A stretch of 64,000 nucleotides of DNA, taken from an uncultured Comamonadaceae bacterium (GTDB lineage Bacteria > Bacteroidota > Bacteroidia > Flavobacteriales_D > Sanyastnellaceae). The position numbers and the translations under genes are program-made. Positions 8,634 through 62,518 of the stretch are shown piece by piece. Where the stretch lies: contig CAZKRL010000003.1 of assembly GCA_964555295.1 (NCBI GenBank), positions 9,487 through 73,486 on the forward strand, given 5' to 3'. The notes beneath the pieces are model-generated. The model was given only the letters and a program-made list of their open reading frames with translations. It searched no databases and was not told where the DNA came from. The first letter of the stretch is position 1; each line of letters begins with the position of its first letter.

Positions 8634-9560
8634 ATGAAAATTTCACCTCCACAATCATTGAAAGACGTTGCGGCAATTATCAAAAGCACAACTTCAGGAA
8701 ACGAAAATCATATGATATATGGAATCAATGAAATTCATCGCGTTGAACACGGAGATTTGGTTTTCGTTGACCACCCCAAATACTACGAAACAGCGCTAAA
8801 ATCAGCAGCAACGACAATTTTAATCAATCAAAGAGTGGATTGTCCTCAGGGCAAAGCCCTTATTTTCTCCGATGACCCTTGCAGAGATTTCAACGTTTTG
8901 CTCAGACATTTTTGTGAACCCAAGCCATGGCCTAATAGTAGGCAAGAGTTTGATAATACAATAGTTCACCCAACTGCAGTTATAGGAAATGATGTGAAAA
9001 TCGGCACCGGTTGCATTATTCACCCCGGAGTGGTTTTATACGACCGTGTAAAAATTGGCGATCATTGTATTATTCATGCCAATAGTGTTATTGGAAGCGA
9101 TGCTTTTTATTACAAATCCCGGGGCACTCATCGCGATAAGATGTACACAGCCGGTGGGGTAAATATTGGCAATCACGTGGAAATCGGTGCTGGATGTACG
9201 ATTGATAGTGGACTAACCGCCGATACGATAATTGGAGATCACTGCAAACTCGATAATCATGTGCATGTGGGTCACGACACAATGATCGGTCGCAATTGTC
9301 TTTTCGCCGCCCAGGTGGGTATTGCAGGGTGCGTGGTGATTGAAGATGATGTAATTCTCTGGGGTCAGGTCGGTGTTCCAAGTGATATTCATATCGGCAA
9401 AGCAGCAATTGTATTGGGCCAGAGCGGAATAACCAAAGATCTTGTTGGTGGAAAAACCTACTTCGGCAGCCCTGCTGAGGAGGCCAGGAATAAATACCGC
9501 GAACTCGCTCTGATCAGAAAACTCCCCGAAATAGCCGCCCAATGGGAAAGAATAAAATAA
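8634..9560 (+). CDS. lpxD: UDP-3-O-acylglucosamine N-acyltransferase (left-handed beta-helix)
   Basis: 308 aa with an LpxD-like N-terminal domain followed by a run of hexapeptide repeats (IGxxxxI/V pattern). Confidence 0.8.
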   Translation: MKISPPQSLKDVAAIIKSTTSGNENHMIYGINEIHRVEHGDLVFVDHPKYYETALKSAATTILINQRVDCPQGKALIFSDDPCRDFNVLLRHFCEPKPWPNSRQEFDNTIVHPTAVIGNDVKIGTGCIIHPGVVLYDRVKIGDHCIIHANSVIGSDAFYYKSRGTHRDKMYTAGGVNIGNHVEIGAGCTIDSGLTADTIIGDHCKLDNHVHVGHDTMIGRNCLFAAQVGIAGCVVIEDDVILWGQVGVPSDIHIGKAAIVLGQSGITKDLVGGKTYFGSPAEEARNKYRELALIRKLPEIAAQWERIK

Positions 9561-45475: not shown

Positions 45476-47275
45476 TTACTCCCCAGCAGACATACCCGTT
45501 GGAGACCCTAAACGATCCATAGCGCAACGGAAACCTAAAGTTGATTTTGCGCGTCTTTCATCTAAGAATCTTCTAGTCCCCGGTATAGTATAATATGCTC
45601 GATCCCTCCAGCTTCCACCCTTGTATACACGAGCTCTGTCATTGATTAAGCTCGTTGGATTACCGCCTGCCCACTCATACATTCTATTTTGATCTTTCTG
45701 TTTGCTTTCTTCCATCTCTTCCCAATAGGAATATACACCACCTGCTTCTGTATCGGAATAAAACTTAGAGCTCATTAAATCACCATCCCGAAAATCTATG
45801 TAGTCTGCCTTTCTGTAATTTGTCCTGTCTATGTTTTCCTCGACAGTAACATTTCTATACTTCGCCTGACCAGGTGTGTTGATAATATAATCCGTAACCC
45901 CATCTCTCAAATCCGGGGCGGCTGGCGCATCCGAGTCTACTATCAGGTCCATAAGCTCCTGCATCATATCCTGGGCCTCCTCCGGCTTCCGTTCAGAAAC
46001 CTTCGTACTAGCATTGGTAATCTTTTCCAGGCATTGTCCGATTAAAGTATTATCCGATTCTATAAGTTTAGCTCCAGCTTGCTTTTGATATAGCTCCAGA
46101 AAGCGCTTTACCCCAGCAATATCATAAGCCACCTTATCATGCTTGTCTGCAAAAGAACCATCAGAATTCATGGATCTGGTTTTGTAAACATTCCCCCTAA
46201 AAGGCCTAAAATCACTTTTGTCTTCAGGCGACAACGGACGATATACATCCATTACCCATTCTGACACATTGCCCGCCATATTATAGAGACCGTAATCATT
46301 AGGAGGATATGCATAAACAGGAGCAGTAATATCCGCGTTATCATTGAGGTAACCCGCAACACCCATATAATCTCCACCTCCCCTAACAAAGTTGGCGCGA
46401 ATCGTTCCGTAGAATCTTCCCATATCATCATCATTCCTCACATAGTGTCCATTCCATGGATAGGTACGCCGATCTGTAATAAGCTCTTGAAAGGAATTGC
46501 CAATCAGACCCAGCGCTGCATATTCCCATTCTGCTTCCGTTGGAAGACGGTATCTTGGCAGCAATATGCCGTCCATCATGTTCACGCTTCTCATTCCTGA
46601 GCCCTTTGGATTAAAATCTTTCAATCCTCCAGCGGCGGCATCACCCGAAAATTGGCCTGCGAGATAAGTTTCAGTTGTAAAATGCTCCTCATCCGCCTGA
46701 CCTGTTGGATTGTGAGTTAGAAGACCTTCACGAATCAATACAAATTCATTCACACGATCTGACCTCCAATTGCAGTACTCTGATGCCTGCAACCAATTGA
46801 CTCCAACTACCGGATAATCGCGGTAGGCCGGATGTCTTAGATAATAATCGACCATGGGTTCGTTGTACTCCGTTACCTCCCGCCAAATATTAGTATCTGG
46901 TAATGCACGATTGATAATTTCCGGATACGTATCACCATAAACCAACTTGAGCCAATGCAGGTAATCTAACCAGTATTGATTCGTAACTTCGGTTTCATCC
47001 AGATAAAAAGATGACACAGTTACCCTTCTTGGAATATTGTCCCAATTGTAGTTGAGGTCATCCTCCACCCTTCCCATCGTGAAGGTACCACCTTCAACAA
47101 GTATCAATCCCGGGCCTGTCTCCTGATCTAAGTAATCCTGACGTTCGAATCCGCCGTTCATTTCATCATTGTATGCCCATCCCGTGGCATTTGACGCTTC
47201 CTTTTTGCAACCAAAAAGAGTAAAAATCAAAACTGCTTGCGGAATCAGCAGATTGAGAATAATTGATTTTTTCAT
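45476..47275 (-). CDS. gldJ: Gliding motility lipoprotein GldJ (FGE/SUMF1-like fold)
   Basis: 599 aa with lipobox LFGC. It shows FGE-sulfatase-like motifs (e.g. YKGGSWRD), and murF-gldJ synteny is typical of Flavobacteriia. Confidence 0.88.
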   Translation of the reverse strand: MKKSIILNLLIPQAVLIFTLFGCKKEASNATGWAYNDEMNGGFERQDYLDQETGPGLILVEGGTFTMGRVEDDLNYNWDNIPRRVTVSSFYLDETEVTNQYWLDYLHWLKLVYGDTYPEIINRALPDTNIWREVTEYNEPMVDYYLRHPAYRDYPVVGVNWLQASEYCNWRSDRVNEFVLIREGLLTHNPTGQADEEHFTTETYLAGQFSGDAAAGGLKDFNPKGSGMRSVNMMDGILLPRYRLPTEAEWEYAALGLIGNSFQELITDRRTYPWNGHYVRNDDDMGRFYGTIRANFVRGGGDYMGVAGYLNDNADITAPVYAYPPNDYGLYNMAGNVSEWVMDVYRPLSPEDKSDFRPFRGNVYKTRSMNSDGSFADKHDKVAYDIAGVKRFLELYQKQAGAKLIESDNTLIGQCLEKITNASTKVSERKPEEAQDMMQELMDLIVDSDAPAAPDLRDGVTDYIINTPGQAKYRNVTVEENIDRTNYRKADYIDFRDGDLMSSKFYSDTEAGGVYSYWEEMEESKQKDQNRMYEWAGGNPTSLINDRARVYKGGSWRDRAYYTIPGTRRFLDERRAKSTLGFRCAMDRLGSPTGMSAGE

Positions 47276-47295
47276 GATCTCCTTTGTGTGTTATT

Positions 47296-48285
47296 TTAAA
47301 ATGACGGACACGCGACCGTACGCATTTTCTTTTTCTTCGCTTTACATTCAAAATTGATACCCAATGTTACCTCATGCGACCCGCCGGTAGCCGGGGTTAA
47401 TTCAGAGATGGTAACGTCATAACTATATCCAACGCGTATCATATCCGTTTGAAGGCCTAAAGTTGCGATAAATGCATCGCGATATTTCTCGCCGAAAAGC
47501 AAACCTCTGAACCAAACCCCAAGAACTAAAGGCCCCTTACTAACGTATGTACCAAGGCACATTTGCTTAAACTCTCCTTGGCGCCTATATAAAATATTAG
47601 GAGAAATTTTAGCATCAGAATTGCGACTTCTTTTCTCTATTGGAAGGACAGCCCCCGCGTGAAAAGTAAATTTCATTGGGAGACGGCTCGTAGCCAAAAC
47701 CAATGATTCGTTGGGCTCGTTGAGATGATGAACAGCGAATCCTCCATAGTACTTATCGCTAAAAGCAAGAATGCCAGCACTAAAATCAAGAGCTTTTACA
47801 TTACCTCCTCGCTGCAAATCCTGAGTTTGATAAATGAACCCTTTTCTTGGATCTATCATATCGCCAAATGTTAATTGGCTCCAGTCGAGTGTCTTTTGAA
47901 AATAGGTTGCCTGCAACGCCGCCTTAAGTGAAACTTTCTTTGTTATCGTTTGCTGATAGGAATAAATACCTCCTAATGATGTTGTGTTCAATGTGCCTTG
48001 TGCGGCTCTGTCGTTTACTACGATTACACCTACACCACCTTGAAGTAACTTCACTTGCTGGTCATAACTGGCACTGGTTGTAACGAAGTTACCCGTTAAC
48101 GATGGCCATTGATTTCTGTAGGCCATTACCAGCCTTGGACAACGCAAAGTACCGGCAAATGCCGGATTCAGATACAGCGGGTTGGCATAAAACTGAGTAA
48201 ACTCTGCATCTTGAGCATTCATCACCTCTGTATTCAGAGAGGTCAACGATACAAGACATATTAAAACAAGAAGACTCCGACGCAT
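47296..48285 (-). CDS. PorP/SprF-family type IX secretion membrane protein
   Basis: I chose the ATG at 48285, which gives a signal peptide. The hallmark QFYANPLYLNPAFAG follows immediately after it, and the rest has beta-barrel-like character. Confidence 0.85.
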   Translation of the reverse strand: MRRSLLVLICLVSLTSLNTEVMNAQDAEFTQFYANPLYLNPAFAGTLRCPRLVMAYRNQWPSLTGNFVTTSASYDQQVKLLQGGVGVIVVNDRAAQGTLNTTSLGGIYSYQQTITKKVSLKAALQATYFQKTLDWSQLTFGDMIDPRKGFIYQTQDLQRGGNVKALDFSAGILAFSDKYYGGFAVHHLNEPNESLVLATSRLPMKFTFHAGAVLPIEKRSRNSDAKISPNILYRRQGEFKQMCLGTYVSKGPLVLGVWFRGLLFGEKYRDAFIATLGLQTDMIRVGYSYDVTISELTPATGGSHEVTLGINFECKAKKKKMRTVACPSF

Positions 48286-48400
48286 TCTTAGATTGCAGTT
48301 AAATTTCTTATAATCAGCAATGATACAACAATTTTGTTGAACAAAAAAATTAATCATAATTGGCAATAATTTGCGCCATCATCGTTTCAGCAACACCAAA

Positions 48401-51400
48401 ATGAATTATTCCCCAACCAAACTTTTCGGGACATTGTTGTTCTCTCTCGTTTGCTTCATCGCATCAGCGCAAGAACTCAACTTTCAGAGTAATATTTCGT
48501 GGCAGGCCGACACGGTTTTTAAATCGTGTTCTGGCATTTTCAAAGGGGCATTTTTAAATCCTGATTTCGAAGGCTTACCATGCCTTCACTTCACACAATT
48601 CGTAAGTGACAGAGTGCATTACATTGATGGCATCGAGATATCATCCGCCACATTTCAAAGTTTTCAATGCACAGATGTTAGACTTCAAAACTATCTCGGT
48701 TCCGACTGGGTGATACAATCCAAGATTTCCGACGCCCGTGGAAAATACTTTTTATCTTTAACCCTATTGCCTTTCCGCAAAATCAATGGTCAGATGGAGA
48801 GGCTCGTCAGTTTTTCCATTAACGTAAGGTATTCACAGACACCCAATCTCTCAAATTCTAGGGAAATGCAGTGGAAAGACCACTCGGTTTTAAAAGAGGG
48901 AGAGTGGTACAAATTAGCCATCTCCAAAGACGGAATTTATAAAATCGATAAGAACCTGCTTTCAGCGATGGGGGTGAACACTTCAAGTGTGGACCCAAAG
49001 CTGATTAATATTTATGGCAACGGAGGCCAGCTACTTCCGGAGCTTAATAGCGAATTTCGAGCGGATGACCTAGAAAAATGTGCCATTTTCATTGAAGGCG
49101 AAGAAGACGGTGTATTTGATAACAGTGACTACATCCTGTTCTATGCAAAGGGGGCTGATAGTTGGCAAATGGACAATATTCCGGGGGCTGGAAGAAAGGG
49201 TTGGCTCCACAAAAAACACTACTATTCAGACTCCGCGTATTATTTCCTAAGAATCAATGACACCGAACCAAAACGTATTGAACCGACAACACAACCCGCT
49301 GGAGCAACTCAGTACATAAGCTCCACATTTCAAGATTATCAATTTATTGAAACAGAGTTATACAATCTCGTTCAATCAGGTAGAGAGTTTTATGGAGATA
49401 AATTTGAACAGACCCTCTCTCGTGATTACAATTTCAATTTTCCATCGATTCGATCTGATTACCCGACAACAATTCACGCCGGTTTCGCAATTCGGTCTGT
49501 AGGGGCGTCCAGTAGTTTCAGTGTCAGCAGCAGCGGGGCATCTATCGCGTCTTCTGGAGTTACCAGCGGAACTGGCACACTTGCGAGTGTAGCAAGCAAA
49601 GTCAGTGTTACAACAACCATGAATGCATCCAACCCCAGCTTGTTGGTCAACATTACATTCAATAAATCCGCCAACTCATCTGATGCACAGGGTTATCTGG
49701 ACTTTATCAATATCAATACTACTCGTGATCTAACTTACCACGGCACCCAAATACACATCAGAGACACCAACAATGTGGGCCCTGGCGCATTGACACAGTT
49801 CGAGTTACAAAACGCCACTGGCTTATTCATGCTCTGGGATATTACTAACTTCACCTCACCCCAGAAAATTGATTATACTATTGACGGAACAAGCGCCACA
49901 TGGAAAGCCGCTACAGATAATTTGAGAGAATTTATCGCCTTTCCTAACTTCAATTTCCTCATACCAACTTCATTGGGCAGAGTCGCCAATCAAGACCTTC
50001 ACGGAACACCACCAACAGATTTGGTAATTGTGAGTGCCCCTGCACATCTTGAGGCTGCCCGGCAACTCGCTGAAATTCACGAATCTGAAGGCATGAGGGT
50101 GCTTTTGGTAACCCAAGCACAAGTGTTTAACGAATTCTCTTCGGGAACACCAGATGTAACAGCAATAAGAATGCTAATGAAAATGCTTTACGATAAAGCT
50201 GATGGAAATGACTCTGATCAACCAGAAAATCTTTTGCTTTTCGGTGATGGGAATTATGCTAATAATCGTGGATACAGAGCCCTTAATGGCTCTAATGTAA
50301 TCCTATTTGAGTCGGACGAGTCTTTAGGTCCTGTAACCTCATACGTAAGTGATGATTATTTCGTCATGCTGAGCGATAATGACAACGCCTCACCTACAGG
50401 TTTGTTAGATGCGGGAGTTGGCAGAATCCCTGCTGGGAACGCTACAATGGGGTATGAATACGTAAATAAAGTGCGTCAATATTTAGCATTGAACAACAGC
50501 CCAACCGGTGAAATAAATTGTTTGGGTGAGGCGAGCCAAAATTCATTTGGCCCGTGGCGAAATCTCCTCAGTTTTATCTCTGATGATCAGGATGGCAGTG
50601 GTGCAGCGAATGAGCAAATTCACTTGGAGGATGCGAATACACTGGCAGATAGAATATATAACGAGCATCCGGACTATGATGTAAACAAAATATATATGGA
50701 CGCTTACGTTCAGCAATCAACACCAGGTGGCGAGAGATACCCCGACGGTGAAAGGGCAATACGTGAGCAGATAAATAACGGATCCCTGATTGTAACCTAT
50801 TTGGGTCACGGAGGTGAAAGAGGTTGGGCACATGAGAGGATTTTGGATGTCAACACTATATCGAATTTTTCGAATATCAATAACATGCCCTTATTTCTTA
50901 CTGCCACTTGTGAGCTTGCGAGATACGATAACCCTGACTACTATTCGGCAGGTGAGAGACTTGCCATGAATAGCAACGGTGGAGCCATAGCGCTGCTTAC
51001 TACTACAAGGGTAGTTTTTGCGGGCTCCAACATGCAAATGGATATGGCATTTTTCGATGTGGCACTTTACAATGACTCCATAAGCGATTTGACGTTGGGG
51101 AAAATCAATATGCTTACTAAAAACGGGGTGCCTGTATCAAATTCCAGCAAGCCCAATTTCAGTTTGCTTGGCGACCCCGCGCTTAGATTGAGATACCCAA
51201 AGTATGAAGTAATTACTACCCACATCAACGGAACTTCCGTCAACGATTCCTCTCCAGACACCATTAAAGCCCTACAAGAAGTCGAAATTGTAGGATATAT
51301 ATCTGACGCATCTGGAAATAAATTAGATGATTACAATGGATTTATATACCCCGTTGTATACGACAAAATATCTACTGTTACCACTCTTAATAACGATTTT

Positions 51401-52294
51401 GACGGTGTCTACGGAGAAAGCCAGACTTACAAAGTTTTTAATAAGGTCATCTTTAAAGGAAAATCATCGGTAACTCAAGGTGAGTTCAAATTCAAATTTG
51501 TAGTGCCACTTGATATTAACTACAGTGTTGGATCAGGTCATGTTTCATACTATGGGCTGTCGGGGAGCGAGGATGCACATGGTTTTTTTGACGATGTTTT
51601 CATTGGTAGTTCTCTCAGTGGATCACAATTAAACAAGGTGGGTCCGGAAATAAAAATTTTCTTTAATGACACAACCTTTGTAAATGGCGGTGTCTCGAAT
51701 ACCTCGCCTGTTCTTATCGCTAGGCTAAAAGACGATAACGGCATAAATACCATTGCAAACAGTATCGGACATGACATCGTAGCAATTGTTGATGAAGACA
51801 CTCAAAATCCGATTGTTTTAAATAACTATTATCTCTCAGACCTAGATACATATCGAAGCGGAGAAATCAGGTATCAATTGGAAAAGCTTGAGCCTGGAAA
51901 TCACACCTTAAAAATTCGGGCATGGGATGTGCACAACAATTCTAATACTGAAGCTATAGACTTTGTAGTGGAGGAGGACGCCAATATTGCAATAGAGCAT
52001 TTGTTGAATTATCCCAACCCATTTACTACATCCACAAAATTTATGTTCGAGCACAATCAAGCGTGTCGGAATCTGGACATCCTAATTCAAATATTTACCG
52101 TTTCAGGAAAACTCGTTAAAACCATAGAACAAGCCGCCTACCAAAACGGATTCAGGGCCACACCGATACCTTGGGATGGGAGAGATGACTTCGGAGATAA
52201 AATTGGAAAGGGTGTCTATATGTACCGGCTTTCCGTAAAAAATGAAAACGGCGAGAGTGCAGAACTCTACGAAAAACTCGTCATTCTAAAGTAA
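48401..52294 (+). CDS. porU: Type IX secretion sortase PorU (C25 peptidase-like)
   Basis: I chose the ATG at 48401, which gives a signal peptide. It has a gingipain/C25-like central region and a C-terminal NYPNPFTTSTKF... T9SS-type domain. It is followed by porV. Confidence 0.88.
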   Translation: MNYSPTKLFGTLLFSLVCFIASAQELNFQSNISWQADTVFKSCSGIFKGAFLNPDFEGLPCLHFTQFVSDRVHYIDGIEISSATFQSFQCTDVRLQNYLGSDWVIQSKISDARGKYFLSLTLLPFRKINGQMERLVSFSINVRYSQTPNLSNSREMQWKDHSVLKEGEWYKLAISKDGIYKIDKNLLSAMGVNTSSVDPKLINIYGNGGQLLPELNSEFRADDLEKCAIFIEGEEDGVFDNSDYILFYAKGADSWQMDNIPGAGRKGWLHKKHYYSDSAYYFLRINDTEPKRIEPTTQPAGATQYISSTFQDYQFIETELYNLVQSGREFYGDKFEQTLSRDYNFNFPSIRSDYPTTIHAGFAIRSVGASSSFSVSSSGASIASSGVTSGTGTLASVASKVSVTTTMNASNPSLLVNITFNKSANSSDAQGYLDFININTTRDLTYHGTQIHIRDTNNVGPGALTQFELQNATGLFMLWDITNFTSPQKIDYTIDGTSATWKAATDNLREFIAFPNFNFLIPTSLGRVANQDLHGTPPTDLVIVSAPAHLEAARQLAEIHESEGMRVLLVTQAQVFNEFSSGTPDVTAIRMLMKMLYDKADGNDSDQPENLLLFGDGNYANNRGYRALNGSNVILFESDESLGPVTSYVSDDYFVMLSDNDNASPTGLLDAGVGRIPAGNATMGYEYVNKVRQYLALNNSPTGEINCLGEASQNSFGPWRNLLSFISDDQDGSGAANEQIHLEDANTLADRIYNEHPDYDVNKIYMDAYVQQSTPGGERYPDGERAIREQINNGSLIVTYLGHGGERGWAHERILDVNTISNFSNINNMPLFLTATCELARYDNPDYYSAGERLAMNSNGGAIALLTTTRVVFAGSNMQMDMAFFDVALYNDSISDLTLGKINMLTKNGVPVSNSSKPNFSLLGDPALRLRYPKYEVITTHINGTSVNDSSPDTIKALQEVEIVGYISDASGNKLDDYNGFIYPVVYDKISTVTTLNNDFDGVYGESQTYKVFNKVIFKGKSSVTQGEFKFKFVVPLDINYSVGSGHVSYYGLSGSEDAHGFFDDVFIGSSLSGSQLNKVGPEIKIFFNDTTFVNGGVSNTSPVLIARLKDDNGINTIANSIGHDIVAIVDEDTQNPIVLNNYYLSDLDTYRSGEIRYQLEKLEPGNHTLKIRAWDVHNNSNTEAIDFVVEEDANIAIEHLLNYPNPFTTSTKFMFEHNQACRNLDILIQIFTVSGKLVKTIEQAAYQNGFRATPIPWDGRDDFGDKIGKGVYMYRLSVKNENGESAELYEKLVILK

Positions 52295-52318
52295 GATGTT
52301 AACCCTATATTTGACCAT

Positions 52319-53554
52319 ATGTTTCGCATGCGCCTGCTGACTTTCAGCGCTTTTTTAATGCCACTTGTTTTCAACGGACAATTGAATCAAAACAACAATT
52401 CCAGTAGTACCTGGCAACTCAATACCATAACCACAGCAGTGCCGTTTCTTCAAATCGCTCCAGACTCGCGGAGCGGCGCAATGGGAGATGCCGGTGTTGC
52501 GTTACCAGCCGATGCTAATTCGACATTTTGGAATCCTGCCAAGATGAGTTTTTCCAAGGAAAAATCAGAAATTTCATTCTCCTACTCGCCATGGCTGAGG
52601 GCATTGGTCAACGACATGAGTCTCGCGTATTTGAGCGGATATAAGAAGTTAACTAAAAACCAAGCGATAGGTGCGTCACTCAGATATTTCACTCTCGGAA
52701 ACATCACCTTCACGGATGAAGTAGGAACGAACATTATGGATTTCAAACCTAACGAGTTCGCAGTAGATGCATCATTCAGTCAAAAATTCAGTCAACGCTT
52801 TTCAGGAGGTATTGCAATCCGTTACATATACTCAAATCTCACCGGAGGTCAAACAGTACTTGGGGCCGATAGCAAGCCCGGTATGTCAGTGGCCTCAGAC
52901 ATATCACTTTTCTATTCCAACGAGAATCTTAACCTCGGCAAAAAGGAAGGAATTTTCAATATCGGTTTAAGTGCATCTAATATTGGCAATAAAATCCGCT
53001 ATACGAACTCTGATAAACGCGATTTCATACCAGCAAATTTGCGACTTGGTTCTTACTTCGGTGCCCAGCTTGACAAATACAATCTTCTTGGATTTACGAT
53101 CGACCTTTCGAAACTTCTGGTGCCTACCCCGCCCAAATATGATATCGCAGGAGAAAACATTCTTGCAGGGAAAGACAATGATGTCGGGGTTGCAACGGCA
53201 ATCGTTCAATCTTTCACAGATGCTCCTGGGCAATTGGACGAGAACAATCAAGTTATCCCAGGGTCTGTGCTAAAGGAGGAGTTGCGCGAGATCAATATCG
53301 GCGGCGGCTTGGAGTACTGGTATGACAAACAATTTGCATTTCGAACAGGATACTTCTACGAACATTTTTCCAAAGGAAACAGACAATTCATTACGCTCGG
53401 CGCCGGACTTAAGTATCAGGTCCTAACCATAGACATGTCTTACTTAATAAGTACAACACAACAAAACCCACTCGCCAATACGCTTCGTTTTACTATGCGC
53501 TTTTCGCTTGGCGCCAAGAAAACTGCTGACGAAGAAAGCACAAACAATGATTAA
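52319..53554 (+). CDS. porV: Type IX secretion outer-membrane shuttle protein PorV (LptO)
   Basis: 411 aa with the hallmark TTAVPFLQIAPDSRSGAMGDAGVA. It sits in the porU-porV-cdd synteny. Confidence 0.88.
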   Translation: MFRMRLLTFSAFLMPLVFNGQLNQNNNSSSTWQLNTITTAVPFLQIAPDSRSGAMGDAGVALPADANSTFWNPAKMSFSKEKSEISFSYSPWLRALVNDMSLAYLSGYKKLTKNQAIGASLRYFTLGNITFTDEVGTNIMDFKPNEFAVDASFSQKFSQRFSGGIAIRYIYSNLTGGQTVLGADSKPGMSVASDISLFYSNENLNLGKKEGIFNIGLSASNIGNKIRYTNSDKRDFIPANLRLGSYFGAQLDKYNLLGFTIDLSKLLVPTPPKYDIAGENILAGKDNDVGVATAIVQSFTDAPGQLDENNQVIPGSVLKEELREINIGGGLEYWYDKQFAFRTGYFYEHFSKGNRQFITLGAGLKYQVLTIDMSYLISTTQQNPLANTLRFTMRFSLGAKKTADEESTNND

Positions 53555-54607: not shown

Positions 54608-57600
54608 CTAGTTACACGTTGTTCCGTACTCGGCGATGAAGATCAACAAGTCGGCAACGCTCACAAATCCATCGCCGTTGATATCGGCCGGACAGTTTGG
54701 ATTACCCAGCTCAAATACGCAAGATCCGTCATCAATTGAAGCACCCGGGTCATAGTTGGTAGCATCTGCGTATGTACAGCCGAGGCAAGACTCAAATTCG
54801 CAAAGGTCGCAATCACCAATTACTCCTTGTGCATTATAGTTACATGCTACGGGAATAATACATGCAGGATCGCAGCTCGGTACACCAACCGCAACTGTTT
54901 GAACCTCCGTTGCAGTTCCCGTAGATCCCTCCAAGCTCCAACCAACTTCAACGTTATTGTTACCCCCCAATATTGCTACATCATAACAACCTTCTACTAA
55001 ACAGACCAACTGGGATTCAGTGCTACCATCAGTAAGAGAAGACACATATGCAACAGCACCGCTAACCGCATCAGTTAACTCAATTTCGGCGCCCTCCCAA
55101 CCATTTCCACCTGCATCTGTTAACACTAGGGAAGCGCAACTCGAAAAGCAACAGCCACCATTATCGCAACCGGCCGATTCATCAAAGTTGCAAGCTGCTG
55201 GATCAATACAGCCAGGATATTGACAAGTTCCGTCATCGCAAGCGGCAGTTTCAGCATAGTTACAAGCCAAAGCGTCGGTACAACCGGGATATTCGCAAGA
55301 ACCATCATCCAGAGTCACATCCGCTGAGTAATTGCAAGCGGTAACATCAGAACATCCATAGCATGAGTAATCACAATCCGTAGCACCAACGGGAGCATTA
55401 ACGTCGTAGTTACAAGCAGTTGAATCAGAACACCCTATACAACTTGTGAAATCACAAAGTGTATTGTCCGTAATCAGTGCGTTATCGTCATAGTTGCAAG
55501 CGGTAGAATCACTACAAGCCGGCTCACACACTGCTGATCCCGCAGAAAAACCAAGAGCTGTTTCAGGTGCTTGACCATCCAAAACAACCGCCCCTGAACC
55601 ATCAGTGAGCGTCCAGAGGACCTCGCCTGGGAAAGTACCTGCTGTTACAGAAACACTGTAGCAACCATCGACTAAGCAATAATCTGCGACACCTTCAGAC
55701 GTGCCTGCAGGCAGTGTAGCCGTTCCAATTACGGCACCTGAAACCACATCTGTGAAAGTGGCTACGGCGCCATTCCAGCCATCGCCAAATGTATCTTCCA
55801 TGTTGAAGGAGAAACAATTCGAGTAACAGCATGTGCTATCATCCTGGGTGTTTCCAACTTCATAATTGCAGGCCGTCGGATCTGTACAACCAACACAAGA
55901 AGTGTACTCGCAGTTTCCAATATCCAGCGTAGCATTCGGATTGAAATTACACGCAGTAGCGTCAGTACAGCCGCAAGTTGAACTACTTCCAATAGAGAAC
56001 GGTACACCCGTTTCAGGAGCCCCACCAACTGCCAGTTGTGAACCTGCGCCATCTACCAAATTCCAATCTACTTCTCCCGGGAAGGTGCCAGCCGAAACCT
56101 GAACTTCATAACATCCGTCTACCAAACAAAAATCAGCAGTGCCTTCAGAGGTTCCTGCAGGTAAGGTAGCCGTAGAGATAACCGTTCCTGATGTAAAGTC
56201 AGCAATAGAGGCTACGGCTCCATTCCAACCGTCGCCGAAAGTATCGAACATATTCAATGTCACGCAATTATTGAAGCAGCATGAGCTATCCTCTTGAGTG
56301 GCTGTTGCATCGTAGTTACAAGCGGTAACATCAGTACAACCTTGACAAGATAAGTATTCACAGTTTCCGATATCAACGATAGCCGTTGGGTTATAGTTGC
56401 AAGCAGTTGCATCCGTACATCCACAATCTGCGGATTCACCTACAGAGAATGGCAAATTCGTTTCTGGGGCACCACCTTCGAGCAACAAACTTCCGTTGCC
56501 ATCAGTCAGGTTCCATGAGACCTCGCCAGGGAATGTACCAGAGTTTACAGTAACCTGGTAGCAACCATCTACGAGACAAAAATCAGCGGTTCCCTCCGAT
56601 GTACCCGCGGGAAGAGTTCCAGTTCCTACAGAGGCTCCGCCTGCTCCCAATTCAAAAACATTTGCTACTGCACCATTCCAACCATCGCCGAAACTGTCGA
56701 ACATATTCAACGTAACGCAATTGGAGAAACAACATGCATCAATGTCTGCAATGATTGCTGTATTATCATAATTGCAGGCGGTAGGATCCATACAGCCAGA
56801 GCAAGTCAAGTACTCACAGGTGCCATTGTCAAGCGTAGCGCCATTATCATAATTACAAGCACCTTGGTCTGTGCAACCACAAATTCCGTCACCGATAATG
56901 AAATCAAAAGTTCCCGTACCATTCGGGGATGCTGCCGAAATGATGACGTTACCATCGGCATCCGACATGGACCAAACAACCTCATTTGCGAAAGTACCTC
57001 CCCCAACTGTCATGATGTAACAACCAGGAGCCAAACAGAAAACATCAAAGCCCGCATTTTGGATATCCCCACAAAACGCTGAATTTAAGCTACCCGTAGC
57101 AACAACTTCCCCAGTCGCGTTGGAAATGCTGTAGGTATTTCCATTCCATCCATCGCCGAATGTGTCGCTCATGTCAAACTTAACTACAGTTGAATTCGCA
57201 TCGCAGGCAACGCATGAGAAATATTCGCACGTGTTGTTTTCAATATTCGCTTCAGGCAAATAGTTACATGCACAGTCATCGGTACATCCTTCTACCACCG
57301 GTTCACAAGTGGTGTTCAACACGAATGATCCATCGAATAAATCATCAACGAAATCTCCGTCGGTATCAACTCCCCCTGCCGTTATATACACATAGTAAGT
57401 GGTTCCGGCTTCGGCAATAAATTGAACAGTGGCATCATCAGCATCGAAGAAACCACAATTGGTCGCATCATCGTCGGCGCTAACCTCGCAAGCAAAGACT
57501 CCATTACATCCGTCAGAAGAGGTCAAAACATTTATACGACTATCAATATCCGAACCACAAGTGCTCAGAGTAATGAATTGTCCATCTCCTGCATAGGTAT

Positions 57601-60600
57601 ACCAAACGCCATTATCACCAGAACCTGCAGGACAAACCGTTGGCGCGCCAACAGCAGTTGATGCCCCGGTAGAGCCATTGATACTCGCGTCGCAAACCAA
57701 AGGAATCGCATTAACACAAGAATCATTCTCAACGCTAGGTGCACAAGACGCATACTCGCAAGTGCCATCATTGATTGATGCGTTAGCATCATAATTACAA
57801 GCTGCCAAATCTGTACATCCAACATTCGCCAAGCTCACGTTTAAACTGAAGTTGCCGCATAACTGTGGATTAGAGGTAGTAAGACATAAGTAATAATTCG
57901 TATTTGGAGTGATGGTAATTCCATATTCGTAAGAATTGAATTCAAAACCATCCAATGTGCTTCCATCGTTGGGGTTGGAGTCGAATCCGATACCACCGAT
58001 AACTGGTGTCAAATTAGAACAGTCAGGGCTGCCTGAGAATATTCCGATACCCACATCTAACCCGTCAGCGCCATCGATTCCAGCTCCATTTCCATTGTAA
58101 AACGCAATATCCAATGCGTCAAAATCTGCTGAGTTAATCTGGTACCAAATACCATACTGAGTAGTGAAACCATCCCATGGCGCCATCTCATCGTCGGCAT
58201 TGGAGCAACACAAGCTTCCTGTCGCTTGCACTCCGGAAGTAAGAGAAACGGCATCTGCGCACTCATCATTTACAGCTAAACCATTAGGACATTCCGTACA
58301 TGATGTCGAGAGCGTAAACGGAATGCTTGTTGAGGCCGTTCCGCTGAATAGAGATACAAGAATATAATAGGATTGATTCGCAACTGTAGTAAAGGAAGCA
58401 CTCGACAAAAATCCCGTTCCACAGCCGTCATCATTTTGTGTTACACATTCCAAATTGTTGCAATCTCCAGTAAATATGTGCAGTTTGGTGTCTTGTGCAT
58501 CACCGCTACATGTTTCAACAGAAACTTGACCGCCGTTACCTACCAGTCTGTACCACACACCAGGTGTAGTAATTGCATTGGTAGCATCACAGGAGGTTAC
58601 ACCGGGCTCAAAAGTTGAGTTAGTAAGCACTCCCGTTTCCGCCCAGTTGCATGGGATTAGGGTTGCATTAGCGCAATCATCGTTTGAAGGCGGACAAATA
58701 CATGAGTTATCATTTATCGTGGCAAACGGGTTGTAGTTGTTACATGAAGGGGTTGTGCATCCTTGAACTGAACAACCGGTGGCTCCTCCCCATGGGAAAC
58801 CATAACTCTCATTAGCTATTCCCGTAAGGAGCGCATTACCATCTTGGGTAGTTATTGTCCACTCTACCTGCGCAGGCGCAGTACCGGCAGTGATATTTAT
58901 TGTATAACAGCCCTGGCTGAGACAGCCGGAAAAAGAACCCTCGCTGCCAGATGCAAGTGTACCGGTAGAAATCGTAGCCCCAGCGGATGTAACAATTGTC
59001 CAGTTGGCACCTTGCCAACCGTTATTACCATAATCCACCATATTCACCGTGTACACTGTTTCATTGGCTGCACAAACAAGACATGAACCGTCATCGCAAC
59101 CCGCATTTGGGTTATAGTTGTTGGCCGCCGGATCTGTACAACCTACCTCTAAACCACTTGGGCTTATAATCTGTCCGGCAGGATCATTAGCTACACCGCT
59201 GAAAGTAAAACCCTCTGTATTCGTCAAAGTCCAAGAGATTTCACCATCAAAAGTTCCACCACCAACGACAACGTTGTAGCATTCCGTACCCAAGCAGAAC
59301 TGGGAGGCACCTACTGAACCGTCAAGCAACTCAGCCGCAGCCTCTACTGTACCTGAAGCTAAATTGAAAATCACCGCCGTTGCACCATTCCAACCATCAC
59401 CGAAGGTGTCGAACATATCGAGAGTATAAACTATTTCTCCCGGATCGCAAACGAGACAAGAACCGTCATCGCACGAGGCCGCTGCGTCATAATTCTCTGC
59501 ATCTGGATTAGTACAACCTGGTGTTAAACCGGTTGGACTAAAAATTTGTCCTTGAGGATCATTGGCTTGACCATCGAGAGAGAATCCGTCTGGACCGGAC
59601 AAGTTCCAGCTAATTTGACCATCGTTGAATCCGCCGCCGGCTACTATAGAATAGCATGCTGTGCCGAGGCAAACATCCACTTGACCTTCGCCTCCGCTTT
59701 GCAGAGTCGTGGTAAGGATATTTTGTCCTGAGGCAAGATCAGTAATTACCGCCTGTGCATTCGCTCCCCAACCGTTATTCCCTGTATCGAACATGGTTAA
59801 TGTGTAGCTTGATTCTCCGCCAGCGCAGAAAAGACATGAACCATCGTCGCAATCTGCGAGCACGTTGAAATTGTTGGCGGCCGCATTGGTACAACCCGGC
59901 GTAACACCGCCGAAGGCCAGAACATCGGTTTGAGGACCAGAGCCCGTGGAGAGTGTTCCGGTAGAAAGGGTATTACCGTCTCCGTCAGTAAAAGTATAGG
60001 TTGCTCCATTCCATCCATCACCGAAATTATCGGTCATAATAAACTGGTACGTACAGCCGGGTGTAGGCAAACAGAATGCAAGATTGCTCACAGGTGCACC
60101 TCCCTCGAGAATGACGCTACTATCCAAATCCAAGAACTGCCATCCCACCTCAGCTGGAAATCCGCCACCGGTAACGGTTAAAAACGCACAATTCGAATAA
60201 CAACATTCAGAGTTGTCGGTAATGGTTGCTGCGTCATCAAAGTTACATGCTGCAACATCGGTGCAGCCCGCACAGCTGGTATATTCGCAAGACCCGTCAT
60301 CCGTGATAACAGAAGGAGAGTAGTTACAAGCACCCTGATCGGTACATCCTATGGTTGGAATATCGCAAATCACGTTAAGGGTGTATGCGCCGGTGTTCGC
60401 TAAGTATCCGCCAACTCTTATGAGGTAGACTGTACCCGTGGTCATAGCGAAAGTTACTGATGACAACAAACCTGTTCCGCCGTCATCATCGCCGGTAACA
60501 CAATTCAGGTTGCCGCAGGCTCCCGTATACACGTGCAACTTCGTGTCCCATGTCGGGTTTGTATTTTCCGTATTTATCGTGCAAGTGCCCACACCCGGCG

Positions 60601-60826
60601 CTACCAGAGCGTACCATATTTGACCCGCCGTTCCGACGGTTGTCACACAAGTTGGCGCACCAGAGGTGGCATTATCATTGGTAACACCAACAGTTGAGCC
60701 GTTGACGGTAGCACCGCATGTGATTGGAATTGGACTAGAGCATGTAAAACCTTGAGACCACAAGTTGGAAAATGGCAACAACATCAAGCCCATCATCCAC
60801 GCTGCATTACAGAAAAAATTTTTCAT
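54608..60826 (-). CDS. Giant secreted cysteine-rich mosaic protein (about 2072 aa from the ATG at 60826)
   Basis: One uninterrupted ORF with the signal peptide MKNFFCNAAWMMGLMLLPFSNLWSQ. It contains 4 PPC-like domains, 21 CTDxxACNY...DDGSC knots and 9 [FM]DxFGDGWNG...CLxxGCY...GxFxxEVxW modules. The C-terminus carries a DINGDGFVSVAD loop. Confidence 0.85.
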   Translation of the reverse strand: MKNFFCNAAWMMGLMLLPFSNLWSQGFTCSSPIPITCGATVNGSTVGVTNDNATSGAPTCVTTVGTAGQIWYALVAPGVGTCTINTENTNPTWDTKLHVYTGACGNLNCVTGDDDGGTGLLSSVTFAMTTGTVYLIRVGGYLANTGAYTLNVICDIPTIGCTDQGACNYSPSVITDDGSCEYTSCAGCTDVAACNFDDAATITDNSECCYSNCAFLTVTGGGFPAEVGWQFLDLDSSVILEGGAPVSNLAFCLPTPGCTYQFIMTDNFGDGWNGATYTFTDGDGNTLSTGTLSTGSGPQTDVLAFGGVTPGCTNAAANNFNVLADCDDGSCLFCAGGESSYTLTMFDTGNNGWGANAQAVITDLASGQNILTTTLQSGGEGQVDVCLGTACYSIVAGGGFNDGQISWNLSGPDGFSLDGQANDPQGQIFSPTGLTPGCTNPDAENYDAAASCDDGSCLVCDPGEIVYTLDMFDTFGDGWNGATAVIFNLASGTVEAAAELLDGSVGASQFCLGTECYNVVVGGGTFDGEISWTLTNTEGFTFSGVANDPAGQIISPSGLEVGCTDPAANNYNPNAGCDDGSCLVCAANETVYTVNMVDYGNNGWQGANWTIVTSAGATISTGTLASGSEGSFSGCLSQGCYTINITAGTAPAQVEWTITTQDGNALLTGIANESYGFPWGGATGCSVQGCTTPSCNNYNPFATINDNSCICPPSNDDCANATLIPCNWAETGVLTNSTFEPGVTSCDATNAITTPGVWYRLVGNGGQVSVETCSGDAQDTKLHIFTGDCNNLECVTQNDDGCGTGFLSSASFTTVANQSYYILVSLFSGTASTSIPFTLSTSCTECPNGLAVNDECADAVSLTSGVQATGSLCCSNADDEMAPWDGFTTQYGIWYQINSADFDALDIAFYNGNGAGIDGADGLDVGIGIFSGSPDCSNLTPVIGGIGFDSNPNDGSTLDGFEFNSYEYGITITPNTNYYLCLTTSNPQLCGNFSLNVSLANVGCTDLAACNYDANASINDGTCEYASCAPSVENDSCVNAIPLVCDASINGSTGASTAVGAPTVCPAGSGDNGVWYTYAGDGQFITLSTCGSDIDSRINVLTSSDGCNGVFACEVSADDDATNCGFFDADDATVQFIAEAGTTYYVYITAGGVDTDGDFVDDLFDGSFVLNTTCEPVVEGCTDDCACNYLPEANIENNTCEYFSCVACDANSTVVKFDMSDTFGDGWNGNTYSISNATGEVVATGSLNSAFCGDIQNAGFDVFCLAPGCYIMTVGGGTFANEVVWSMSDADGNVIISAASPNGTGTFDFIIGDGICGCTDQGACNYDNGATLDNGTCEYLTCSGCMDPTACNYDNTAIIADIDACCFSNCVTLNMFDSFGDGWNGAVANVFELGAGGASVGTGTLPAGTSEGTADFCLVDGCYQVTVNSGTFPGEVSWNLTDGNGSLLLEGGAPETNLPFSVGESADCGCTDATACNYNPTAIVDIGNCEYLSCQGCTDVTACNYDATATQEDSSCCFNNCVTLNMFDTFGDGWNGAVASIADFTSGTVISTATLPAGTSEGTADFCLVDGCYEVQVSAGTFPGEVDWNLVDGAGSQLAVGGAPETGVPFSIGSSSTCGCTDATACNFNPNATLDIGNCEYTSCVGCTDPTACNYEVGNTQDDSTCCYSNCFSFNMEDTFGDGWNGAVATFTDVVSGAVIGTATLPAGTSEGVADYCLVDGCYSVSVTAGTFPGEVLWTLTDGSGAVVLDGQAPETALGFSAGSAVCEPACSDSTACNYDDNALITDNTLCDFTSCIGCSDSTACNYDVNAPVGATDCDYSCYGCSDVTACNYSADVTLDDGSCEYPGCTDALACNYAETAACDDGTCQYPGCIDPAACNFDESAGCDNGGCCFSSCASLVLTDAGGNGWEGAEIELTDAVSGAVAYVSSLTDGSTESQLVCLVEGCYDVAILGGNNNVEVGWSLEGSTGTATEVQTVAVGVPSCDPACIIPVACNYNAQGVIGDCDLCEFESCLGCTYADATNYDPGASIDDGSCVFELGNPNCPADINGDGFVSVADLLIFIAEYGTTCN
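55526..56881 (-). repeat. Three in-frame tandem repeats of about 450 nt inside the giant gene
   Basis: The GDGWNG-encoding segments recur at about 55765, 56215 and 56665, an exact 450-nt period. The protein units are residues 1348-1499, 1500-1649 and 1650-1799 (ORF-track numbering). Confidence 0.85.
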
Positions 60827-60890
60827 CAAAAACGATTTTTGGTTGTCAAAAATTAGGTTAAGTACACTTTTCAGTTTCGCAATCGAAGTG

Positions 60891-60922
60891 AAAAAGGTGT
60901 CGCAAGATAATACAAGCGACAC
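60891..60922 (-). terminator. Terminator separating the xrtF module from the giant gene
   Basis: Stem GTGTCGC...GCGACAC (60897-60922) is followed on the minus strand by CTTTTT. It is preceded by a T9-C-A8 tract (60931-60948). Confidence 0.5.
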
Positions 60923-60973
60923 ATTTCAGATTTTTTTTTCAAAAAAAAGACAATCCAACTATCCTCACATAAA

Positions 60974-61459
60974 TCAAGGCAACAAAAACAGCGGAGAATG
61001 AGAAGGCGTCCATGGCCAAGTATTCCGCAATTCGGCTAAGCTATGCGGCATGGGTGAAAAGATGGCTACAGCCGATAACTTCATCTCTTCACGATAAGCG
61101 GAGGAGGTCTGCAACCATCTACTGAAATGCCAATTCTTTTCAGTATCCTTCCACACCACAATACCAGCTTCAAGCGGGCTTAGGTTATATTTTGACAAAG
61201 TTGCCTTTACGTTTAACTGCATGGAATCTATTCCGCAACCCGAAACCTTTTGATGTTCGTTACCTCCTGCGATAAAAAGAAAACGGTTGAATTGCCATTG
61301 AGCAGAGGCTTTTACCGCCATCTGGTGCGAATTCCAAGAATCAATAAAAGGGACTAGGTCGTTTAATACATCTTCACACAATTGATCTGTCAAGACATTT
61401 TCAAATGCAAAACCCCAGACACGTGCCGTATCCTCAAGACTATTCCAATTTGTCAACAT
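60974..61459 (-). CDS. Conserved hypothetical protein, last gene of the xrtF module
   Basis: 161 aa and soluble-looking, with a VSGCGIDS motif. It overlaps the upstream gene by 20 nt. It resembles a roughly 160-aa Bacteroidota family that I cannot name with confidence. Confidence 0.55.
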   Translation of the reverse strand: MLTNWNSLEDTARVWGFAFENVLTDQLCEDVLNDLVPFIDSWNSHQMAVKASAQWQFNRFLFIAGGNEHQKVSGCGIDSMQLNVKATLSKYNLSPLEAGIVVWKDTEKNWHFSRWLQTSSAYREEMKLSAVAIFSPMPHSLAELRNTWPWTPSHSPLFLLP

Positions 61460-61994
61460 ATCCTTGCTGCAATTTCAGTTTAAAAATTATAATAACAATC
61501 AGAGCTGGAATACCCGATTGCCCCGCATTCAAAATTTTCCTCGAGACTGCCACTGAGTACGATTCAATGAAAACAGCTCTTTCCACAACAAAAAAAATAC
61601 TGCCAAGAACAATGATCAGCAAGTATACCAGAGCAAGCCAGCGCAAAGCAGAAATATTGCCAATGATGAGCCAAAGCGAGAAAGCATTCAAAGCGGCGAA
61701 AGCTATAATTGCAATGGCAACTACTGCCCACTTCAAAACAACCAAATCGGAACGCTTGAATGAATGGAAAAAGGATAAAGGTTTATGACTATGATAATAA
61801 TCTGAAGGCGAATTCCGACGATACACCGCCAATTCCACTTCACGTTCCTGAGGATTTAAACTATCATATTCGGGTATTCTGCCGGAGAACTCAATAATAA
61901 AATTCAAAGAGACCTTTACATTTTCAAGTGCAAAGCCGGCCATTATCATCACGACAGCGGTCACAACAACGAAAACAACAGGCCATTGCTTCAT
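61440..61994 (-). CDS. Exosortase F system-associated membrane protein
   Basis: I chose the ATG at 61994, which overlaps the xrtF stop (ATGA). It is 184 aa and multi-TM. Its position and character match the obligate partner gene of xrtF (TIGR04127-type). This is inferred, not searched. Confidence 0.65.
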   Translation of the reverse strand: MKQWPVVFVVVTAVVMIMAGFALENVKVSLNFIIEFSGRIPEYDSLNPQEREVELAVYRRNSPSDYYHSHKPLSFFHSFKRSDLVVLKWAVVAIAIIAFAALNAFSLWLIIGNISALRWLALVYLLIIVLGSIFFVVERAVFIESYSVAVSRKILNAGQSGIPALIVIIIFKLKLQQGYVDKLE

Positions 61995-62518
61995 TTCGCG
62001 AAAGAAAAATATTTGACCCATAACAGCCACAGCAGAAATTCAATTGAATACACCACGGCAGTGAAGGTGTAATCATGATTGAACTGAAGAATAGACTCAT
62101 CGACTTTTGCAATCCACGCCAAAGCCACCACGCGCAAAGTATTTATCCAAAACAAAAACAAGACACCTGTTGGAATGAACCAAAGTTTTTGTTTCACCGG
62201 CCCTGGAAATGCGAGAATGAAGCAGACGAATAGAGCGTACAAAACCACGCCATCACAGGGAGCACCAACCGTTATCACCTTTGCGCCTTTAAGAGCGATA
62301 TGGCGTTTCAAGGGATTATTCCATTGTCCTAAATCTTGCAGTTCGGCGCCCAAAAATGACAACTGAGACTCAGATGTGGAAACGATTGCATGAATTATGA
62401 ACTGATCAAAACGAGAATTTCGTTTAAGGTAAAATTCATGTACACTTAACCAAGCTACGTATGAACCAAAGCCGATTGAGAGAAATCTTATTACGGGATT
62501 ATTGGAGAGAAAAGCCAA
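61991..62518 (-). CDS. xrtF: Exosortase family protein XrtF
   Basis: 175 aa and polytopic, with the exosortase catalytic-triad context: Cys in GAPCDGV, Arg in INTLRVV, His in NHDYTF. The small size fits the Bacteroidota XrtF subfamily. The start is a TTG at 62518. Confidence 0.82.
   Translation of the reverse strand: MAFLSNNPVIRFLSIGFGSYVAWLSVHEFYLKRNSRFDQFIIHAIVSTSESQLSFLGAELQDLGQWNNPLKRHIALKGAKVITVGAPCDGVVLYALFVCFILAFPGPVKQKLWFIPTGVLFLFWINTLRVVALAWIAKVDESILQFNHDYTFTAVVYSIEFLLWLLWVKYFSFAK

Follow-up and report, generated by a model that had tools for sequence, protein, structure and literature searches.

A giant, cysteine-rich secreted protein with hardly any basic residues

We analyzed 64,000 nucleotides of DNA (the window: positions 9,487 to 73,486 of contig CAZKRL010000003.1, assembly GCA_964555295.1) from an uncultured bacterium that GTDB places in the Flavobacteriales_D, family Sanyastnellaceae. 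The minus strand of the window encodes a giant modular protein that is the last gene of a cassette containing exosortase X (XrtX) (Table 1). An initial annotation, made from the sequence alone, had described this product as a secreted protein of about 2070 residues, built from short Cys-rich knots, modules with a GDGWNG motif (called GDGW below) and four PPC-like domains. Length and export were both confirmed. The longest minus-strand open reading frame (ORF) at the site, 54608..60922, begins with GTG and encodes 2104 residues; starting from the ATG at 60826 gives 2072 residues, a Sec signal peptide and an N-terminus that agrees with those of the homologues. That N-terminus reads MKNFFCNAAWMMGLMLLPFSNLWS followed by QGFTC, and the predicted cleavage between LWS and QGFTC exposes an N-terminal Gln. 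Signal peptide cleavage in Bacteroidetes is described by a "Q-rule", and the homologues' signal peptides end in AQ before xTC. Four features had escaped the initial annotation: the near-absence of Lys, Arg and His, a dockerin-like C-terminus, a permuted first GDGW module and the XrtX cassette upstream.

The composition of the protein is extreme. Cys accounts for 148 residues (7.1%), and G, T, A, D, S and N are abundant. Only nine residues are basic: the signal peptide has one and the PPC-like domains have seven, including four that belong to a DTKLH motif. In the other 31 proteins of the window Lys, Arg and His account for 9.5-21% of residues, versus 0.4% here, and the depletion is family-wide, with at most 1.2% across 60 tabulated homologues. 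The mature chain (~2050 residues) carries ~249 Asp and Glu and 8 basic residues (6 Lys/Arg and 2 His), a net charge of about -240. We found that the gene is under purifying selection and is not a pseudogene, because a 90%-identical orthologue is full length, the ratio of nonsynonymous to synonymous substitution rates is 0.025 (with synonymous sites saturated) and 147 of the 148 Cys are kept; a 65%-identical orthologue keeps 143. The extracytoplasmic location that the Cys content had been taken to imply is supported by the signal peptide together with this retention of Cys. A conserved unpaired Cys that could form an intermolecular disulfide with the small PID-CTERM protein of the cassette was also considered and dropped, since the number of Cys in the mature chain has no consistent parity (odd in 26 orthologues, even in 15).

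Domain organization

The knots, GDGW modules, PPC-like domains and a 30-residue C-terminal element tile the whole chain, which leaves no room for a catalytic domain. Scans of the whole protein and of nine separate pieces against Pfam, NCBIfam and PHROGs, together with the domain map, revealed no peptidase domain anywhere in the 2072 residues. Thirteen beta-sandwich domains, four PPC-like and nine GDGW, make up most of the chain.

Table 1. Features of the giant protein and of the genes upstream of it (window positions; aa, residues of the giant protein unless a length is given)
Feature	Position	Strand	Remarks
Giant protein ORF	54608..60826	-	2072 aa, 148 Cys, K+R+H 0.4%, D+E 12%
Sec signal peptide	60752..60826	-	aa 1-25, read from sequence
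PPC-like domain 1	60356..60751	-	aa 26-157; AlphaFold2 pLDDT 93.8
Knots 1-2	60197..60346	-	aa 161-210
GDGW module 1, circularly permuted	59894..60196	-	aa 211-311; HMM halves reversed
Three single-knot + GDGW units (knots 3-5, modules 2-4)	58760..59893	-	aa 312-689
Knot 6	58694..58759	-	aa 690-711
PPC-like domains 2 and 3, direct junction without knot	57818..58693	-	aa 712-845 and 846-1003; jackhmmer
Knot 7	57743..57817	-	aa 1004-1028
PPC-like domain 4	57287..57742	-	aa 1029-1180 (or 1026-1180); jackhmmer
Knot 8 + GDGW module 5	56876..57286	-	aa 1181-1317
Three double-knot + GDGW units (knots 9-14, modules 6-8)	55517..56875	-	aa 1318-1770
Five tandem knots 15-19	55136..55516	-	aa 1771-1897
GDGW module 9, most divergent	54863..55135	-	aa 1898-1988; i-E 2e-32
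Knots 20-21	54710..54862	-	aa 1989-2039
Putative Cys-clamped single dockerin-type Ca2+ loop-helix, CPADINGDGFVSVADLLIFIAEYGTTC	54611..54709	-	aa 2040-2072
p161	60974..61459	-	161 aa, family unknown, no signal peptide; invariably the gene just upstream of giant-protein family members
Membrane protein, weak match to XrtX-associated membrane protein	61440..62030	-	NF046082 E 0.005, below cut-off
Exosortase X (XrtX)	61991..62518	-	NF046081 170.5 bits, cut-off 170
Mini-protein, signal peptide + PID-CTERM	62530..62760	-	76 aa; NF046080 E 1.2e-9, 37.8 bits, cut-off 26
N-terminal part of divergent 814-aa protein	62868..64000	+	377 aa; tblastn 98% to locus L084; runs off window end

Knots are general connectors with a precedent in perforin-2

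A loose regular expression for the knot core and a hidden Markov model (HMM) built from its matches each found 21 knots of ~22 residues (consensus GCTDxxACN[YF]xxxAxxDDGxCxY), versus a mean of 0.32 and a maximum of 4 in 2000 residue shuffles. The count of 21 given in the initial annotation was therefore correct, but the literal pattern given with it is too strict and retrieves 10 of them. Knots contain two to five Cys. Among 1566 knots from 121 family proteins the two commonest arrangements were Cys at positions 1, 7, 20 and 25 (263 knots) and at positions 1 and 20 (233 knots); because these are the commonest, the core of the knot may be read as a 20-residue loop shut by a Cys1-Cys20 bridge, to which a Cys7-Cys25 bridge would be an optional addition.

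Neither Pfam, NCBIfam nor PHROGs holds a model that matches the knots, in agreement with the earlier statement that they belong to no named family. In particular, the Pfam and NCBIfam scans gave no match to the EGF family, and the knots lack its six-Cys pattern with 1-3, 2-4 and 5-6 pairing. A precedent does exist, however: when a knot profile was compared with 177,635 distinct PDB sequences, nothing but perforin-2/MPEG1 was matched, with E 5.7e-4 for the human and E 0.077 for the mouse protein, and every match fell on one and the same site. The segment concerned has been described as a "truncated EGF-like domain" that joins the MACPF and P2 domains and as the proposed hinge of domain rotation (PMC6989145; PMC7593815). 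Compared in sequence only, the knots and the MPEG1 hinge (PDB 6U2J, 6SB3) share the 23-residue signature PGCTDxxxxNFxxxAxxDDGSC, matched as GCTDxxxxN[FY]xxxAxxDDGSC, and both would be small Cys-closed connectors between larger domains (PMC6989145). MPEG1, a metazoan pore-former, differs in having one copy, between MACPF and P2, whereas the giant protein has 21, often with a second Cys pair. The resemblance ties a bacterial repeat to the perforin-2 hinge and suggests an ancient, reusable disulfide-locked connector.

The initial annotation had presented the alternation of knot and GDGW module as a putative repeated unit for binding glycans, minerals or particles. Knots do precede the modules, but the pairing is not specific: they border every type of domain, with the junction of PPC-like domains 2 and 3 as the one exception, they also border the C-terminal element, and five of them run in tandem. 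Knots are thus general inter-domain connectors and not dedicated partners of the GDGW module.

An uncurated beta-sandwich module

The nine GDGW modules proposed earlier were all recovered, eight of them as full-length HMM matches (i-E 1e-32 to 1e-43). In the remaining one, the most N-terminal (module 1), the part matching the C-terminal half of the model (aa 187-253) precedes the part matching the N-terminal half (aa 259-301), and this reversed order identifies the module as circularly permuted. The permutation is common to family proteins P0001, P0002 and P0004, while P0027, P0038 and P0060 have the canonical order. An AlphaFold2 model of two knots and one module (aa 1470-1619), built on an alignment of 62 sequences, was of high confidence (predicted local distance difference test, pLDDT, 94.4; predicted template modelling score, pTM, 0.78) and showed irregular, well-ordered loops that lead into a beta-sandwich of eight strands.

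The GDGW module matched no Pfam-A, NCBIfam or PHROGs model, as the initial annotation had supposed. Foldseek with the modelled unit retrieved nothing from the PDB at E<=0.001; the top matches, all at E >= 0.02, were generic sandwiches (MmpS5, E 0.024; PLAT/C2; FlgD; Ig-like). A search of PDB sequences with the whole giant protein gave nothing, and with a profile of knots plus module no PDB sequence matched the GDGW part significantly. A full-text literature search returned nothing relevant on the GDGW motif, XrtX, PID-CTERM or the GC-type dockerin.

The module is not peculiar to the giant protein. A profile made from the eight canonical copies in the window, run against 1.84 billion proteins, matched 2814 representative clusters (at 50% identity) at E<=1e-3, 920 at E<=1e-10 and 128 at E<=1e-30. 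Matches include eukaryotic proteins, for example two of the stramenopile alga Chrysophaeum taylorii and one MMETSP transcript, and the eukaryotic-looking members that were scanned carry three or four GDGW modules after a Peptidase_S8 or M43 catalytic domain or after FG-GAP repeats. Among viral structure models (Foldseek, BFVD) the fold was found in marine phages (NIOZ-UU157 virus, E 2.4e-7), in a protein of an uncultured marine phage (32% identity over 98 columns) and beside a giant-virus caspase. Two uncultured megaphages of ~640 kb (LR745206.1, 581271-581600; LR756502.1, 57778-58074) gave weak tblastn matches to a knot plus GDGW unit (E 2e-3 to 4e-3, ~30% identity), less clear than those of the BFVD models. 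That the modules follow the catalytic part of protist subtilases and of an M43 peptidase, on its C-terminal side, and that phages have them too, fits an accessory binding domain. Such an arrangement resembles the proprotein-convertase P-domain (PF01483), likewise a small beta-sandwich C-terminal to Peptidase_S8; however, no GDGW module of the giant protein or of the scanned protist proteins matches P_proprotein or any other Pfam model, the modelled GDGW unit has no close PDB neighbour, and the one P_proprotein match that we checked (P0038, aa 156-194) lies upstream of the first GDGW module of P0038 (aa 275-373). The GDGW sandwich is thus an uncurated, confidently foldable domain of ~2800 clusters that is common to aquatic Flavobacteriales, marine phages and marine protists.

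In two protist subtilases a sub-threshold EGF_Teneurin-like, Cys-rich segment separates the catalytic domain from the first GDGW module (P0152, aa 298-344; P0198, aa 242-281), so that the succession of small Cys-rich linker and GDGW sandwich is seen again there, with another linker. A CUB_2 match in the protist homologue P0259 fell below threshold and was not used.

PPC-like domains

The four PPC-like domains (130-155 residues) are mutually homologous, as jackhmmer searches begun from any one recovered the other three (1e-12 to 1e-36). Their positions in the initial annotation agree with ours once the 32-residue offset from the GTG start is subtracted. Pfam scores in the giant protein itself lie below the gathering cut-offs: GBD_T9SS_assoc (PF23759) scores 18.1 bits on domain 1 (cut-off 27; E 0.003) and PPC (PF04151) scores 14.4 bits on domain 2 (cut-off 25.9; E 0.07). 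Across the family, 10 of 33 members match PPC and 9 of 33 match GBD_T9SS_assoc at E<=0.01 (best, 4.8e-7 and 9.9e-8). An AlphaFold2 model of domain 1 (pLDDT 93.8, pTM 0.88) retrieved with Foldseek the collagenase PPC domain 5sv5 (E 1.6e-5, TMt 0.74) and the ColG/ColH collagen-binding domains (CBDs) 1nqj_A (TM 0.79 normalised to target) and 3jqw, with E ranging from 1.6e-5 to 7e-4. The initial PPC/jelly-roll assignment is upheld by these matches, and the predicted structure indicates that the four domains have the beta-jelly-roll fold of the clostridial collagenase PPC/CBD and GBD_T9SS_assoc domains. The copies in the giant protein differ from the collagenase domains in that they are sub-threshold, are not C-terminal to a peptidase and have extra conserved Cys. 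Structure prediction with Foldseek, proposed in the initial annotation, thus placed the PPC-like domain next to collagenase PPC and left the GDGW unit without a close PDB neighbour.

A dockerin-like C-terminus

The C-terminus of the giant protein follows a family-wide consensus, CPxDxNxDGxVxVxDLLxFLxxYGxxC, and in the giant protein itself a Ca2+-loop motif of the form DxNxDGxxxxxD and the helix after it are found in DINGDGFVSVAD-LLIFIAEYG. A profile of the family's C-termini, compared with the PDB, matched the repeats of cellulosomal dockerins (2y3n_B, E 7e-10); the two repeats of 2y3n align to the one segment present here. Pfam Dockerin_1 (PF00404) matched at E 0.02 over positions 36-53 of 57 only, the GC-type dockerin model NF041540 matched 12 of 28 family members at E<=0.01 in its second half only, and the dockerin-like C-terminus is present in 13 of 13 p161-linked proteins. 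As in type I dockerins and NF041540, a DxNxDGxVxxxDL loop followed by a helix lies at the extreme C-terminus; the pair of Cys that brackets it here is a difference. Taken together, these matches point to a dockerin-type loop-helix, clamped by two Cys, that would bind Ca2+, and the element is probably the attachment module of the giant protein.

A conserved cassette with exosortase X

The five genes of the cassette lie on one strand, the first four closely packed, in the order PID-CTERM mini-protein, XrtX, membrane protein, p161 and giant protein. The mature mini-protein is ~20-25 residues long, Pro/Gly-rich and contains two Cys (..GGEPPCGEPFGxxCPIDGG). Loci L001-L004, L079, L080/L081 and L084 have the same five-gene order, with XrtX identities as low as 42%; L085 has a syntenic cassette in which the exosortase was not called. 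No partner of the giant protein is more tightly linked to it than p161, which is kept even in loci without XrtX. p161 has conserved SW.SHG and SGCSID motifs, with W, H, R and G-C..D among its invariant residues, and it had no NCBIfam match, no Pfam match on record and no PDB match; relatives occur at L079:5198-5698, L080:5272-5766, L082:5268-5747 and L083:5056-5535.

As an independent test of the linkage, we examined 80 metagenome loci retrieved through XrtX alone, 41 of which have at least 2.6 kb of downstream sequence. p161 was present in 39 of these 41, and a knot/PPC/GDGW protein in 32 (28 within 0.5-3.5 kb of XrtX on the same strand and 4 at 4.5-5 kb from XrtX, beyond one inserted gene). 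The PID-CTERM gene was upstream in 61 of 69 XrtX loci. The neighbours of the giant gene resemble known exosortase/PEP-CTERM systems: XrtX and the mini-protein match the curated models NF046081 and NF046080, and the locus adjoins an exopolysaccharide-type operon, as is typical of exosortase systems. The giant protein differs in having no sorting signal, and is related to such systems by synteny only.

The operon runs divergently from the cassette and is headed by a protein of the 814-aa type (810-816 aa in relatives), whose homologue in L083 has Pfam matches to GNVR (weak), CbiA (weak), ParA and AAA_31. The GNVR and AAA_31 matches suggest that this protein is Wzc-like. The genes that follow it in relatives, a conserved set, encode a GT2 glycosyltransferase, an acetyltransferase, a CTP-transferase, an aminotransferase and an SDR, a content which suggests that the operon makes a CMP-activated sugar or an exopolysaccharide.

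Distribution

Related proteins number at least 1358, and the species representatives of GTDB contain at least 404 loci. Almost all of the best 80 loci come from metagenome-assembled genomes of uncultured Flavobacteriales from the sea or fresh water (Crocinitomicaceae, Cryomorphaceae and unnamed lineages); no cultured isolate is among these 80. The taxonomic mapping suggested in the initial annotation thus leads to aquatic Flavobacteriales, with the GDGW module extending to phages and protists.

A putative polyanionic surface fibril and its alternatives

We propose, at somewhat better than even odds (about 0.55), that the giant protein is a non-enzymatic surface or matrix fibril, polyanionic and stabilized by Ca2+ and disulfides. 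It would be exported by the Sec pathway as an extracellular fibril of planktonic Flavobacteriales without an enzyme domain. The 21 knots would act as short, stiff or hinge-like connectors, in the manner of the truncated EGF-like hinge of perforin-2, and the thirteen beta-sandwich modules would bind polymeric or particulate ligands, for example glycans. The last 30 residues would probably serve for attachment through their disulfide-held Ca2+ loop-helix. Because acidic residues so outnumber basic ones, the chain would form a cation-loaded rod resistant to proteases that cut at Lys or Arg. The conserved cassette and its place beside an exopolysaccharide-type operon make a surface or matrix component deployed with the XrtX system the most likely role.

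Several observations weigh against this proposal. The link to XrtX is strong but not obligatory, since 9 of the 41 XrtX loci have no knot/PPC/GDGW protein nearby and several orthologue loci (L006, L009, L010, L042, L082 and L083) contain p161 and the giant protein without XrtX. Canonical dockerins have two loop-helix repeats, whereas the giant protein has one; NF041540 scores below its cut-off (19.8-21.1 bits against 29; E 3e-4 to 8e-4, positions 30-67 of 67); and no cohesin partner is known, none of the genes in the cassette being recognizably cohesin-like, although no search aimed at cohesins was made. Sequence scans recognized no outer-membrane route, whether a C-terminal domain (CTD) of the type IX secretion system (T9SS), a PID/PEP-CTERM signal or a lipobox. 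Finally, the similarity of the knots to MPEG1 is a match of 23 residues that does not prove common descent and could be convergent.

A more specific form of the proposal makes the giant protein the functional payload of exosortase X: XrtX would process the PID-CTERM mini-protein and fix it in the envelope, the fibril would be tethered to it or to the co-encoded exopolysaccharide by the disulfide-clamped, Ca2+-dependent half-dockerin, and p161 would be an accessory factor dedicated to this route. We regard this scheme as speculative, with the odds well against it. If true, Bacteroidota would have a display route in two parts, anchor and payload, that bypasses the C-terminal sorting of the T9SS.

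The T9SS is the usual secretion route for large Bacteroidota proteins, and the giant repetitive surface adhesins SprB and RemA are secreted by it. Like them, the giant protein is very large and all-beta modular, with a signal peptide and no catalytic domain; it differs in its repeat families, extreme Cys content, few basic residues and exosortase cassette. PorU (NF033707) and PorV (NF033710) are encoded 1-6 kb away, and other knot- or GDGW-rich proteins (P0003, P0049, P0055) carry Por_Secre_tail, so the giant protein might be a T9SS cargo adhesin with a non-canonical recognition signal at its C-terminus, which the adjoining PorU/PorV would attach. We consider this unlikely: no type A (TIGR04183/PF18962) or type B (TIGR04131) CTD was found at E 10 in the last 88 residues, nor any in the full protein, and the 30-residue loop-helix is unlike the 70-100-residue beta-sandwich of a CTD. 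Furthermore, PorU and PorV lie on the opposite strand beyond ispF and cdd, and are syntenic only in the nearest relatives (L001, L002 and L084) and not in L079, L080, L082, L083 or L085; a functional adjacency of PorU/PorV was dropped on this ground.

Alternatively, the protein could be a released, unanchored polyanion that acts by charge, as a Ca2+ or metal buffer, a modulator of mineral nucleation, or a coat or decoy against proteases, phages or grazers. Its net charge, the family-wide scarcity of basic residues, the Ca2+-loop motif and the related modules in phage proteins are all compatible with such a role. Thirteen well-folded, conserved beta-sandwich domains and a conserved C-terminal module nevertheless suggest specific interactions and not bulk charge, and the PPC/CBD fold is typically a binding module, which makes an action through charge improbable. 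Least probable of all is that the giant protein is itself a substrate of XrtX, cleaved or transferred at a CPxD...G..C end that would be a degenerate CPIDGG motif: the conserved cassette and the resemblance of ...VVCPIDGGVGF... in the mini-protein to ...NCPADINGDGF... in the giant protein speak for it, but the giant protein ends in ...LLIFIAEYGTTCN with acidic residues and without the transmembrane helix and basic tail that help define PEP/PID-CTERM signals, the PID_CTERM model matches only the 76-residue neighbour in the window, the C-terminus scores as a dockerin repeat, and some loci with an orthologue have no XrtX.

Large modular surface proteins are already known; what the proposed fibril adds is two uncurated building blocks, one of which (the knot) has the perforin-2 precedent, an extreme composition and a conserved association with exosortase X. 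The cassette gives exosortase X a concrete, testable candidate partner. As judged from composition, trypsin-based proteomics and metaproteomics would barely detect the family, because the mature chain has only 6 Lys/Arg, so that planktonic Flavobacteriales may have an abundant surface component that has gone unnoticed.

Additional observations at the locus

Immediately 3' of the p161 stop, inside the 148-nt gap before the giant ORF, lies a T8-GA-A9 palindrome, tcttttttttgaaaaaaaaa (60930-60960, minus strand). A stretch reading TAATTTTTG, ~25 nt upstream of the giant ATG, is similar to the Bacteroidetes promoter element TAnnTTTG without matching it exactly, and the giant gene may have its own promoter.

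The T9SS/gliding cluster of the window extends over 45476-53554, with PorU at 48371-52294 (1243 bits) and PorV at 52319-53554. In L084 the corresponding cluster also has PorP/SprF-family and FGE-sulfatase-family genes, which we take to correspond to two window ORFs, 47296-48366 for the former and, for the latter, 45476-47275, whose product has a lipoprotein-like signal at its start.

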